A stretch of DNA of 4,513 nt from IMG/VR virus record IMGVR_UViG_2609459857_000001; one strand, written 5' to 3'. The stretch comes from a virus (Duplodnaviria; Heunggongvirae; Uroviricota; Caudoviricetes). Both the position numbers and the translations under genes were made by a program. The notes under the pieces are model-generated. The model saw only the letters and a program-made list of their open reading frames with translations, was not told the origin of the DNA and did not search any database. Below are positions 1-4,513 of the stretch, piece by piece (within the stretch, counting starts at the first letter, position 1; each line of letters starts with the position of its first letter).

Positions 1-322
1 GCGTATGAGCACCAATACCGACAGTATGTGCGTGTGCACCTGCGCTTGCAGCAGTACCCGATACAGAGTGCGTATGAGCGCCTGCAGAAGAAGTGTTAAC
101 ACTGTATTTAGAATAATCAGGTGATCCACTTCCCGGAGCACCACTGGAACCACCTGAAACAAATGTCATCGAATGGGTATGTGCACCGGCTGAAGCAGCC
201 GTACCGCTAACACTATGGGTATGCGCACCAGTGTTATTCGTGGATTTAGTGCCGTAATCAAACGACGATGTGGTTTTCGTCCCCAAATCCGTACTGGATA
301 CGCTGGCGCTGTGGGTGTGTGA
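1..322 (-). other. C-terminal His-x-His motif array of stf (probable metal-binding fibre tip), truncated by the window edge
   Basis: HTH occurs at Stf aa 976-978, 1008-1010, 1022-1024 and 1057-1059, HAH at 1071-1073, and a further His at 1080 sits at the window edge. The motifs are embedded in Gly/Ser/Thr/Ala-rich sequence. The 17-residue block [17 protein letters not shown] occurs twice (aa 1006-1022 and 1055-1071). Confidence 0.6.
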
Positions 323-3244
323 TTTAATGCCGTCCTGTTCCTGAGACAATACGGCTCGATCACTGGCGGGCTTGCCCTTAATCGTCCAGCCACGCATATC
401 AGGGATCACGCCTGACGGATAAGCAACTGCAAGTTTCGGGTAAGCAGATTTGTCAAAAGTCTGCCCCTGCATCAGGGCATAACCAGACGGAACGGTATCT
501 GATGGCCACGGGATTGGTGCGCCGACTGGATAAAACTCTGCAGGAGGATGAGCCGAGGTGTAAAGCTGCGCCCACGGCGACCAGTTTGCGTCGGTCGTAT
601 CCCGTCGTGAACGAATAAATGCCGGAGCATGATCGCCGCTGGTTCCACTCCAGCCAATAAGTAACTCACCCTCTCCTACTGCGGTTACACCAGTGAGATG
701 AAGCACATTACCATAGGTTGTTGGGTAGCCATTGTTGTATGCCTCATACATCTGAATGCCTGGTGTACCCTTTGCGCTCCCACTTAATGCCGTAACACGG
801 TTTCTGGATACTAACGTATTAATATTTATATCGCTGGAACCATCAAATTTAACTCCATTTATATTTATCGCATTTTGTAACTTGGTTGCTGTCAATGCGT
901 TACCGTTCAGACTTGCGGACAGTTTGGTTCCAATAACCAGTTCGCCGGTTGCGTTATCAATAGCAAACGGTCTTAATGTATTCCAGCCACCATAAACATC
1001 ACCTTGATTGGTAAGCAGCAGGTAAGTTTTAGCGCCATCATTACGCCATAATGCACCATACTCCCCACCTATCATTCGAATCTGATTACCACCACGCGCT
1101 ACAATTTCGTCTGTGGCAAAAAGTTTTTTGCACGACAAGTTATCGTTAACGATTAACGAATGAGACTCATAAAAACCACGCCCACTCTTAAAATCAAGGA
1201 TAACGTCCGCCGCGATACATTCAGTCGCCGGATTTGTTGCCCCAAACTTATAGGTCGTATCATTAACAACGAGATCAGCACCAGGTGCGGATATTGACAG
1301 GCCATCTTCGATAAACGCAAAAACAGGGAAAGCAGCGCCATCAACATAGAACACAGAGCGCAAATCATCGCCCTTATTACTCATCATTATTGAGTGGATG
1401 GCTCGTTCATTGTTTTGATATTGCCAGAACATTCCATAAGCATAACGCCCCCTGTCAGTCCAGCCACCAGGCATAACAAATCCGTTAAACTCGCAGTTAT
1501 TCATCGGATCGCCTGCGGTTCGCGTTGCCGTGGTGATAATGACCCTTGATGCCAGTTCGCTTACTGAGCCAGTAGAACGCATAACAACAACAGGGTAATA
1601 TTTTCCAGATGTTGCACCTGCAGGAGCGTTAACCCGCACATAACGCATACCACGCTTATCAGCAAAGTCTGTTTTACTGACCGCGTTAATGTTGTTCAGG
1701 AAGCGTCCCTTATCGGGTATATCAGCGCCGTTCTGGTCTTTCTGCAGACGTTTCTCTGCATTGTCATAGGCTGATTTTACTGCCTTTGGCGTTGCCGCCA
1801 GCGTTTCAGACGTACTGTTGGTCGCACTGCTGAGCTGTACTATCCCCTTTTTCGTCGTGCTTGCATCCTCAAGCGCCACGGCAGATGCAATATCCTCTGC
1901 TCGTTTTGCCGCTGTCTCGGCGCGCGTTGCCGCGGATTCCGCCGTACTTTTGCTCTGTGCTGCCGCCGTCGCACTGCCAGCTGCCTCTGTCGCCTTCGTG
2001 GATGCTGTCGTGGCGCTGCCCTTCGCTGCTGACGCCTGTCTGGTCGCCTCATCTTTTGAAGCAGACGCCGATGATGCCGATGACGCCGCCGAACTGGCGG
2101 ACGATGCCGCTGCCGTTTTTGAGGATTCTGCACGGGTTTCCGACGCTTTCGCGTTCGTTTCGGATGTCTTCGCTGCGGAAGCTGACCTCGCTGCTGCACT
2201 GGCCTGTTCAGTGGCTTCGCCAGCCTTCGTTGTGGCTGTTGAAGCGGACGATGCGGCGCTTTCTGCCGATTTTCCGGCGGCGCTAGCACTGGCTGAGGCC
2301 TGCCCGGCACTTGTTGACGCTGCACTGGCAGACGACGCAGCCGCTGTTTTTGAGCCTGCTGCTGCTGAGGCACTCTGTGCTGCTGCCGTTTCAGAGGACT
2401 TGGCGTTTGTCTCAGACGTCTTTGCCGCCTTCGCGGAATTTCCTGCCGCCGTTGCCGAGGAAGCGGCACTACTGGCGCTTGATGATGCGTTCGTTTCTGA
2501 TGATTTCGCTGCCTCTTTTGAGGCCGCCGCATCCCGGGCTGAGGTGGCAGCTTCTGACGCCTTTGTGGTCGCGGTGGATGCAGAAGTGGCTGCTGATTGT
2601 TGTGACGCTGCAGCATTCGTTTCTGACGTTTTCGCGGCACTGGCACTGGTAGCTGCCGCGCTTTTTGAGGACTCTGCAGCAGCAGCACTTTTCGATGCTT
2701 CAGTGGCCTTTGTTGATGCCGTTCCTGCGCTGGAAGACGCTGACTGAGCCGACGAAGCGGCCTGTCCGGCTGACGTGCTGGCTGCGCGTGCTGAGCCTGC
2801 AGCATCAGTCGCATGGGTTGCCGCCTCACGGGCTGATGTGCTGGCATCACTGGCTGACTTCTTCGCGGCTGCCGTGTTCTGTGCCACCACGGACGCGTTA
2901 CGCGCCACCTCTTCCACCATCAGCTCAAAACGGCGCAGTGCCTCCGGACGGGCATCATCCTCCGTCATGGCACCGAGAAAATCATTCAGCGTACCGGGTC
3001 GGGAATCTTCATACACTGTGATGGTCCCGGCATGTGACGGCGGGAATCCTTCCACCAACAGAATAACGCTGTACTGACCGTACTCAACGTCCATACTGTA
3101 ACGCCCGGCTTCATCCGGATTTTCTGAGGCCAGCGTGTTCACCACCACCGTGGTGCTGTTACGTTTTGCTTTCAGCTGGATTGTGCAGTTCTGTACCGGT
3201 TTTCCTGTGCCGTCTTTCAGTACACCTGAAATTTTTACTGCCAT
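1..3244 (-). CDS. stf: Side tail fibre protein of a lambdoid prophage (Stf family, long Rac-StfR-like form); 1081 codons in window, 3' end beyond the left edge
   Basis: ATG at 3244-3242 is preceded by GGGGUGAAU (SD-like). My hand translation of the minus strand gives [118 protein letters not shown]..., then a ~330-aa Ala/Ser/Thr-rich region, then ...[56 protein letters not shown]..., then ...[49 protein letters not shown]..., then ...KSHTHSAS...[20 protein letters not shown]...[27 protein letters not shown]. There is no in-frame stop across all 1081 codons. The N-terminus is recognised as the lambda Stf / E. coli prophage side-tail-fibre N-terminus. The frame is missing from the ORF track because no stop codon falls inside the window. 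Confidence 0.93.
362..523 (-). other. Phage tail collar-type domain inside stf (Stf aa ~908-961)
   Basis: Sequence [49 protein letters not shown] fits the collar-domain pattern P.G(W/Y)..(C/M).G......YP.L......G.(I/L)PD(L/M)RG as I remember it from the Pfam 'Phage Tail Collar Domain'. No HMM search was run. Confidence 0.6.
1775..1846 (-). other. Conserved phage tail-fibre motif ([24 protein letters not shown]-like) inside stf
   Basis: Stf aa ~467-490 read [24 protein letters not shown], followed by [12 protein letters not shown] recognise this as the short motif widely shared among tail-fibre proteins (P2/lambda/T-even types). The Pfam assignment was not verified. Confidence 0.5.
1874..2860 (-). 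repeat. Protein-level heptad repeat array inside stf: 47 consecutive 7-residue units of form x-S-A-x-x-A-x (Stf aa ~129-457), a probable trimeric coiled-coil shaft
   Basis: Parsing the translation in sevens from K129 gives [56 protein letters not shown] ... TSETNAK ... [21 protein letters not shown] with no register break. Ala sits at positions 3 and 6 of almost every unit and Ser dominates position 2. The sub-motif (T/S)SETNA(A/S/K) recurs at aa 206, 248, 276 and 360, with spacings of 42, 28 and 84 residues, all multiples of 7. At DNA level the units use varied codons, so this is a coding periodicity rather than a tandem DNA repeat. Confidence 0.8.
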
Positions 3245-3255
3245 ATTCACCCCAC

Positions 3256-3282
3256 AAAAAAGCCCACCTGAAACGGCGGGCT
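3256..3282 (-). terminator. Intrinsic terminator-like hairpin downstream of lom
   Basis: Minus-strand RNA reads AGCCCGCC-GUUUCA-GGUGGGCU, an 8-bp stem with one G-U pair, followed by UUUUUU (3261-3256) then GUGGGG. It lies between the lom stop (3309) and the stf start (3244). Confidence 0.6.
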
Positions 3283-3308
3283 GTCATAACACTGTGTTAC
3301 CTGGCTAA

Positions 3309-3908
3309 TCAGAACTTATAACCGACACCCACGATGAAACCGTCAGTGCGCCAGTCGCCACTGCCGGAGCCTTCATAAGCAATATCAATGGCCACGGATT
3401 CGGTCGGGTTAAACTGCACGCCAGCTCCCCACGCCAGAGACGTGTTGCTGTGGCGACCGTCATCACTTCCGGTCAGCACATCGTGCGTTTTCCCCTTGTT
3501 GTCAGTTACGCGGAGATAATCCCCGGAGAAAGTCGACACACGGCTGTAAGCCACACCCGCCATCGCATACGCGCTGAACCATTCATTCACGCGTACAGAC
3601 GGCCCCGCCATCACGCTGAACCAGCGGTTACGCACGGAATCTTCATGCCAGCGGGTATCGCTGTAACGGGTAATCTGGCGATTCTTGTCTCCTGCATAGC
3701 TGAACGACGTCACCATTCCCAGAGTGTCCGTAAACTCATAACGGTATTTCACGTTAATCCCGTTCAGATCATCGCTGCCGGAAACGTTCGTCGAGGCATG
3801 AAGATAGCCCGCGCTCAGCGTGGACTGATGTTCAGACGCCCATGCAGGCGCACCGGATACGGCCAGACAAATGGCTGCGGACAAAATGGCGGCATAAAGT
3901 TTACGCAT
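3309..3908 (-). CDS. lom: Outer-membrane protein Lom (Ail/Lom/PagC family 8-strand beta-barrel), a lysogeny-expressed accessory ('moron') gene
   Basis: 199-codon ORF with ATG at 3908 and TGA at 3309-3311. N-terminus [24 protein letters not shown] is a typical Sec signal peptide ending in an AxA cleavage motif. C-terminus ...GVGYKF has the terminal aromatic residue typical of beta-barrel outer-membrane proteins. The sequence is recognised as near-identical to phage lambda Lom, and it sits between J and stf as in lambda. Confidence 0.95.
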
Positions 3909-3912
3909 AATT

Positions 3913-3918
3913 ACCTCT
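3913..3918 (-). promoter_or_regulatory. Shine-Dalgarno / ribosome-binding site for lom
   Basis: Minus strand reads AGAGGU followed by AAUU and then the lom ATG (3908-3906), giving a purine-rich SD with about 4-8 nt spacing. Confidence 0.55.
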
Positions 3919-3932
3919 CGCTTTTCTGCAAT

Positions 3933-3956
3933 AAAAAAGGCGTCATTTCTGACGCC
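3933..3956 (-). terminator. Intrinsic (rho-independent) terminator-like hairpin immediately downstream of J
   Basis: Minus-strand RNA reads GGCGUCA-GAAA-UGACGCC, a perfect 7-bp GC-rich stem with a GNRA-type tetraloop (plus coords 3939-3945 / 3950-3956), followed directly by UUUUUU (3938-3933) then AUU. It lies 19 nt after the J stop codon. Confidence 0.7.
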
Positions 3957-3974
3957 CGTTATGGGTTATAAAAT

Positions 3975-4513
<539 letters not shown>

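Follow-up and report, generated by a model that had tools for sequence, protein, structure and literature searches.

A gp37-like HxH needle module at the distal end of a lambda-type prophage side tail fiber

Three tail genes on a prophage contig

The stretch of DNA analyzed here, which we call the window, is one entire 4513-bp draft contig; an exact look-up of its Lom protein identified it as JNNA01000080.1 of assembly GCA_000700165.1. It holds three genes, all on the minus strand and in the order J-lom-stf, as in phage lambda (Table 1). Translation of window 3244 to 2 on the minus strand gives a stf reading frame of 1081 codons without a stop, and 36 codons plus the stop are missing as measured against near-identical E. 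coli loci. An earlier note on this DNA had placed the 3' end of stf and any tfa gene outside the window, and this was correct.

Table 1. Genes of the window, domains of the distal part of Stf, and HxH motifs (positions in the window)
Feature	Position	Strand	Description
3' end of gene J	3975..4513	-	C-terminal receptor-binding domain, central tail fiber; PF12421 Ig_GpJ_C, E=3.1e-37
lom	3309..3908	-	gene for an Ail/Lom outer-membrane beta-barrel, lying between J and stf; PF06316, E=5.8e-119
stf, side tail fiber gene	1..3244	-	ATG at 3244-3242; 1081 codons; open at left contig end
Collar domain, N-terminal part	323..538	-	Stf aa 903-974 = T4 gp37 D10 residues 811-881
Descending stem	173..322	-	Stf aa 975-1024 = gp37 882-931; HxH 1-3
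Tip subdomain	95..172	-	Stf aa 1025-1050 = gp37 932-959; 26 residues
Ascending stem, cut by contig end	1..94	-	Stf aa 1051-1081 = gp37 960-990; HxH 4, 5 and start of 6
HxH 1	311-319	-	H976/H978; HTH; aligns with gp37 H883/885
HxH 2	215-223	-	H1008/H1010; HTH; aligns with gp37 H915/917
HxH 3	173-181	-	H1022/H1024; HTH; aligns with gp37 H929/931
HxH 4	68-76	-	H1057/H1059; HTH; aligns with gp37 H966/968
HxH 5	26-34	-	H1071/H1073; HAH; aligns with gp37 H980/982
HxH 6, begun	5-7 and 2-4	-	H1080 at 5-7, T1081 at 2-4; base 1 = first base of next His codon; aligns with gp37 H989/991
HxH 7	beyond contig end	-	Stf 1089, sequence from L001/L002; aligns with gp37 998

Many complete E. coli chromosomes match the window with 97-98% DNA identity, and these matches cover 92-93% of it. 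For window 1-330 there are 314 complete E. coli records at an identity of at least 99%, and the eight records listed among them, including ATCC 8739, are all 100% identical. Window 1-330 is found in up to 6 places per E. coli genome, and the whole window in up to 16. The start of the contig falls within the HxH needle of stf, and its end within the receptor-binding domain of J. Both modules are present in multiple copies per E. coli genome, and the assembly most likely broke at each end on repeated prophage sequence; the repetition of the module among prophages would explain the break here.

Stf is of the lambda type by its N-terminal domain and by its position directly after J and lom. Residues 1-134 match the Pfam family phage_tail_N (PF08400, E=1.5e-71), and for residues 1-94 a phmmer search of PDB chains finds the tail fiber protein in entry 9e7m (E=1.8e-51); in RefSeq, matching genes are named 'stfR' or 'prophage tail fiber N-terminal domain-containing protein'. 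Completed with the 36 residues of its relatives, the protein is 1117 aa long. Its shaft is a mosaic, with the lambda-type N-terminal domain followed by an Ala/Ser/Thr-rich region and then by Mu-S-like and gp34-like segments that span window 959-1924 (Stf aa 441-787). The segments resembling Mu tail fiber protein S (PDB 5yvq) cover aa 441-521 and 710-787, and one resembling the C-terminal trimerization domain of T4 gp34 (PF21446; PDB 4uxe/5nxf) covers aa 663-762. Just N-terminal of the needle, aa 908-955 match the Collar family (PF07484, E=4.4e-11, 43 bits against a cut-off of 24), and the collar also matches a short-tail-fiber chain, 9cuy_c (E=1.7e-6, phmmer against PDB).

Relatives of the window differ in which part of it they share. 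The Qin-type locus L002 shares window 1-2208 at 99.5% identity, and strain H1 (L003) shares window 828-4513 at 97.4%. Strain H1 gives no blastn match for some 260 nt that lie immediately upstream of the collar (window 565-827, Stf aa ~806-893), and both flanks of this patch are 96-97% identical to H1. The pattern indicates a recombination patch within stf, which is ordinary mosaicism.

Two minor features of the locus were also recorded. Terminator-like hairpins with T-runs lie on both flanks of lom (window 3261-3282 and 3938-3957, minus strand), one between J and lom and the other 17 nt ahead of the start codon of stf. With 2 sites observed in the terminator scan against 1.0 expected by chance, which is weak evidence, they faintly suggest that the transcription of lom may be insulated from that of the late tail operon. 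In addition, long ORFs (309, 336, 141 and 113 aa) on the plus strand and in the other minus-strand frames overlap stf at window 1818-2872, where they cover its Ala/Ser/Thr-rich region (aa ~125-455). These ORFs, with translations rich in Ala/Asp or in Arg/Gln/Pro, look like side effects of a GC-rich, periodic codon composition rather than genes.

The HxH array and the T4 gp37 tip

The earlier note had described five complete HxH motifs (four HTH, one HAH) and the start of a sixth in a Gly/Ser/Ala/Thr-rich tail. Translation confirmed the motifs, which are spread over 106 residues, and also the composition, with G, S, A and T making up 65.7% of the last 108 residues. Each of the 11 histidines in these 108 residues falls inside an HxH motif. 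The second half of HxH 6 and HxH 7 are known from two relatives, L001 and L002, that differ from window 1-1500 at 1-2 positions. Shuffling the 108-residue tail produced a mean of 1.0 HxH, with five or more arising at P=0.0008; when the whole of Stf was shuffled, the mean fell to 0.29 and 0 of 20,000 shuffles reached five.

One 17-residue unit occurs twice in this region, at about window 26-76 and 173-223. The two copies differ at several DNA positions, apparently synonymous as judged by eye, which argues against a recent duplication, and Tandem Repeats Finder reported no DNA-level array in the HxH region.

The earlier note had also suggested comparing the C-terminal part of Stf with the gp37 tip. 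Run as a phmmer search against all PDB chains, this comparison aligned Stf aa 904-1081 with residues 28-206 of 2xgf_A (E=2.1e-64) in a single ungapped-like stretch, and the match stops exactly at the contig end. For a full comparison, we took the missing 36 residues from E. coli locus L001 (NCTC11023), which matches the window at 1499 of 1500 bases; L002 matches at 1498 of 1500, and its extension is identical. Completed Stf and gp37 811-1026 share 150 of 216 residues (69%) and are collinear to the C-terminus, the 36 borrowed residues being the exact number left in gp37 past the aligned part. With the D10 and D11 boundaries given by Islam et al. 2019 (PMC6957217), identity to Stf is 85% in the D10 collar (gp37 811-881 and 1010-1026), 70% in the D11 stem (882-931 and 960-1009) and 18% in the D11 tip (932-959). 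D11 begins at window 322, so that window 1-322 is exactly the part aligning to D11, stem and tip together.

The histidines are in register throughout. All 14 His of gp37 785-1026 lie in seven HxH pairs, starting at 883, 915, 929, 966, 980, 989 and 998, and each of the seven aligns one-to-one with an HxH of Stf, at 976, 1008, 1022, 1057, 1071, 1080 and 1089. The C-terminal strand that returns to the collar lies beyond the contig end and is identical in L001, L002, L003 and phage PhiR29_2. A 14-residue tail-fiber repeat with HxH (PF03335 Phage_fiber) scores 26.7 bits at Stf aa 1003-1016, against a cut-off of 20, and 30.8 bits when the C-terminus is completed. The likeness to the gp37 tip that the earlier note proposed therefore holds, on the 2XGF match and the seven of seven HxH in register, but its term 'analogy' does not, as 69% identity points to direct homology. 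We conclude that, judged by their sequences, the Stf tip and the gp37 tip are the same module by descent, homologous rather than analogous.

Much of what this homology implies has been described for other phages. Islam et al. (PMC6957217) place seven coordinated Fe along the gp37 needle. In the same paper, gp37 H929 from three chains forms a metal site, H929 and H931 are iron-binding, and no plaques form at all once Ala replaces H929 or H931. Conservation of the HxH motifs extends to coliphage lambda (PMC11705849), and Goulet et al. 2020 modelled lambda Stf 578-774 on 2XGF (PMC7291167). The latter paper, citing Montag 1989, states that lambda Stf and T4 gp37 both bind OmpC and that their parts are functionally interchangeable, and Trojet et al. 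2011 (PMC3157838), citing George 1983 and Hendrix & Duda 1992, have the C-terminal part of T4 g37 together with g38 replaced by lambda-like phage sequences. The relationship between Stf and gp37, the seven irons and the chaperone requirement are thus all published, and the array is an ordinary, already-described feature.

A model of Stf aa 898-1081 by AlphaFold2, from a single sequence and as a single chain, gave no usable fold (pLDDT 38, pTM 0.17). Such a poor monomer model would be expected for an obligate intertwined, metal-bound trimer.

The downstream tfa gene and the tip subdomain

The gene that follows stf can be read in its relatives. In L001, the two genes overlap, with the stop codon TAA of stf sharing bases with the ATG of tfa (TAATG), and in L002 a tfa gene is annotated at the same position. 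The L001 Tfa (193 aa) matches PF02413 Caudo_TAP (E=6e-43) and is of the lambda type, being 93% identical to the Tfa of the lambda-type phage HK629; its identity to T4 gp38, which is required for gp37 folding (PMC6957217), is 26% (E=8e-18). The order J-lom-stf-tfa is found in strain H1 (L003), HK629 (L005) and PhiR29_2 (L006), and tfa is present in relatives wherever the neighborhood downstream of stf is readable, the window itself ending before that point. Full-length Stf counterparts of 1116 aa, each followed by tfa, occur in complete genomes (L003) and in an isolated phage (PhiR29_2). By tblastn, the completed tip matches 687 phage records, mostly from Escherichia, Salmonella and Shigella phages, both lambda-like and T4-like.

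The tip subdomain is the one part of the module that departs from T4, with 18% identity to the T4 tip versus 70-85% for its flanks. It also differs from the tips of the lambda-like HK629 and of PhiR29_2 and is identical in L003. Mosigvirus AV116, a T-even-like phage, has an almost identical tip in its gp37 (L011 762-1460). We presume that the window's tip forms the hypervariable, receptor-contacting end of the fiber, which would make window 95-172 a likely host-range determinant. The tip shared with AV116 appears to illustrate the exchange of specificity cassettes between conserved, HxH-flanked stems; a 'His box' recombination model is reportedly that of Tetart and Krisch. The cassette is apparently common to a temperate siphovirus-type prophage and a lytic myovirus.

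Because the tip is only 18% identical to that of T4 and 2 residues shorter, the OmpC/LPS specificity of T4 cannot be assumed for it. It is conceivable, at somewhat less than even odds, that the tip, common to widespread E. coli prophages and a Mosigvirus gp37, is a distinct specificity cassette with no sequence relationship to the tips with which T4 and lambda bind OmpC/LPS, and that it recognizes a surface receptor other than OmpC.

A putative metal needle and its alternatives

Taking these observations together, we propose, with a probability of about 0.9, that window 1-538 on the minus strand is the coding sequence for the greater part of a lambda-type prophage Stf's distal receptor-binding module, a gp37-type metal needle whose assembly is assisted by Tfa. 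Three Stf chains would form the collar, from which each chain would descend a six-stranded antiparallel stem through HxH 1-3, build a small intertwined tip with the others, and ascend through HxH 4-7 back to the collar. At each HxH, two histidines from each of three chains would supply six imidazoles arranged octahedrally around one axial metal ion, so that seven ions (Fe in T4) would be stacked along the core of the needle. Tfa, encoded immediately downstream, would assist folding and trimerization. The 26-residue tip between HxH 3 and HxH 4 would contact the receptor and act as the specificity determinant, and lambdoid prophages and T-even phages may exchange it as a cassette. We infer trimer formation, metal occupancy and identity, the dependence on Tfa and the receptor role of Stf from the homologous structure. 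The 3' end used here for stf is that of its relatives and, the gene being a mosaic, its own 3' end could in principle differ.

The HxH spacing might instead be a by-product of low-complexity Gly/Ser/Ala/Thr/His repeats with no structural role, as the HxH region is 66% G/S/A/T and contains the 17-residue unit twice. The HxH columns, however, are conserved in T4, HK629, PhiR29_2 and AV116, whereas the interval between HxH 3 and HxH 4 diverges freely; the shuffled tails (P=0.0008) argue against chance spacing, and the homologous gp37 histidines are, according to Islam et al. (PMC6957217), metal ligands in the crystal structure and essential in T4. A chance or low-complexity origin is effectively refuted by the column-wise conservation and the shuffling. 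A subtler possibility keeps the fold and changes what it binds, with a metal other than iron (e.g. Zn, Ni or a mixture) or only partial occupancy of the sites. Metal identity is not specifiable from sequence alone, and the collar has the short-tail-fiber match noted above. The metal in the T4 short tail fiber's receptor-binding domain is Zn, bound by a His cluster. In the reference list of Islam et al. (PMC6957217), that same domain is cited as a 'knitted trimeric metal-binding fold'. We nonetheless regard a departure from iron or full occupancy as improbable, since with a stem that is 70% identical and every ligand His in register the coordination geometry of gp37 is expected, and PMC6957217 places Fe at all seven gp37 sites.

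A different kind of doubt is whether the gene is still in use. On this account stf is a relic in a defective prophage, and the HxH array is inherited baggage with no functional fiber made in the strain. The identical 3' module is also found in truncated tail-fiber genes of defective Qin-type prophages, and such cryptic prophages carry it in N-terminally truncated or short genes; the L001 gene is annotated 'incomplete; missing N-terminus' and the L002 protein has 662 aa. The window covers only 4.5 kb of the prophage, which may not make particles. Set against this, the ORF is uninterrupted for 1081 codons, its N-terminal, shaft and collar domains are all of full length, the genes follow the canonical J-lom-stf order, and full-length counterparts with tfa occur in complete genomes and an isolated phage. 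We consider the relic account rather unlikely, and it concerns expression alone, not the product that the gene encodes.

As an encoded product, a gp37-type needle on a lambda-type fiber resembles several known systems. It shares with the T4 gp37 tip (2XGF) the collar upstream, the seven HxH in register and a gp38/Tfa-type gene downstream, which for Stf is seen in the relatives, but gp37 is the long tail fiber of a myovirus, whereas the window's module sits on a lambda-type Stf shaft in a siphovirus-type prophage. The lambda (Ur-lambda) type, represented by the 'tail fiber' gp24 and Tfa gp25 of Lambdavirus HK629, has the same J-lom-stf-tfa order, PF08400 domain, collar and HxH needle. The HK629 fiber differs by an additional FDYGTK repeat and by an inserted eighth HxH (HQH), compared with seven HxH in the window's Stf, and its tip is longer and unrelated. 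Lambda Stf has 774 aa against ~1117 aa here and lacks the Mu-S-like and gp34-like shaft segments. E. coli prophage stfR genes, such as WP_073544676.1 of strain H1 and that of ATCC 8739, have nearly the same DNA, with the patch at 565-827 replaced in H1. The gp37 of Mosigvirus AV116 has a near-identical tip, and its DNA is 81.5% identical over window 3-289, but it carries extra FDYGTK and GIGAHTHTV repeats (eight HxH) in a myovirus context with a T4-type gp38 gene. In T4 gp12, the R-pyocin fibers and the P2 gpV apex, the three chains each contribute an HxH motif that helps to enclose a single metal ion on the axis of the trimer. These proteins differ in having a single site or few sites and other folds, and they are without a significant sequence match to the window's needle.

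The homology of Stf and gp37, the HxH-iron sites, the Tfa/gp38 chaperones and cassette exchange are textbook phage biology, and identifying the truncated ORF as a probable lambda-type Stf with a gp37-type iron needle is of little import beyond annotation. As a likely host-range determinant, window 95-172 could be of use in lambda- or T4-based particles with swapped tips and in predicting prophage host range.

Two arrangements downstream of stf were seen in related loci. In L002, tfa is closely followed by a gene for a Pin-type serine recombinase (pinQ, Resolvase family; 4628-5218), which is also found in a further locus, L007 (9112-9702); its placement resembles that in cryptic prophages with invertible tail-fiber segments. 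In L007 (4206-8549), the Lom protein is the same residue for residue, but the Stf downstream of it is another one altogether, of 785 aa. This protein has the same PF08400 N-terminus; in place of the HxH needle and tfa, L007 has an 89-aa ORF and a gene for a Peptidase_S74 protein (intramolecular chaperone), an arrangement that points to a swap of the distal end of the fiber downstream of a conserved J-lom-stf 5' region.
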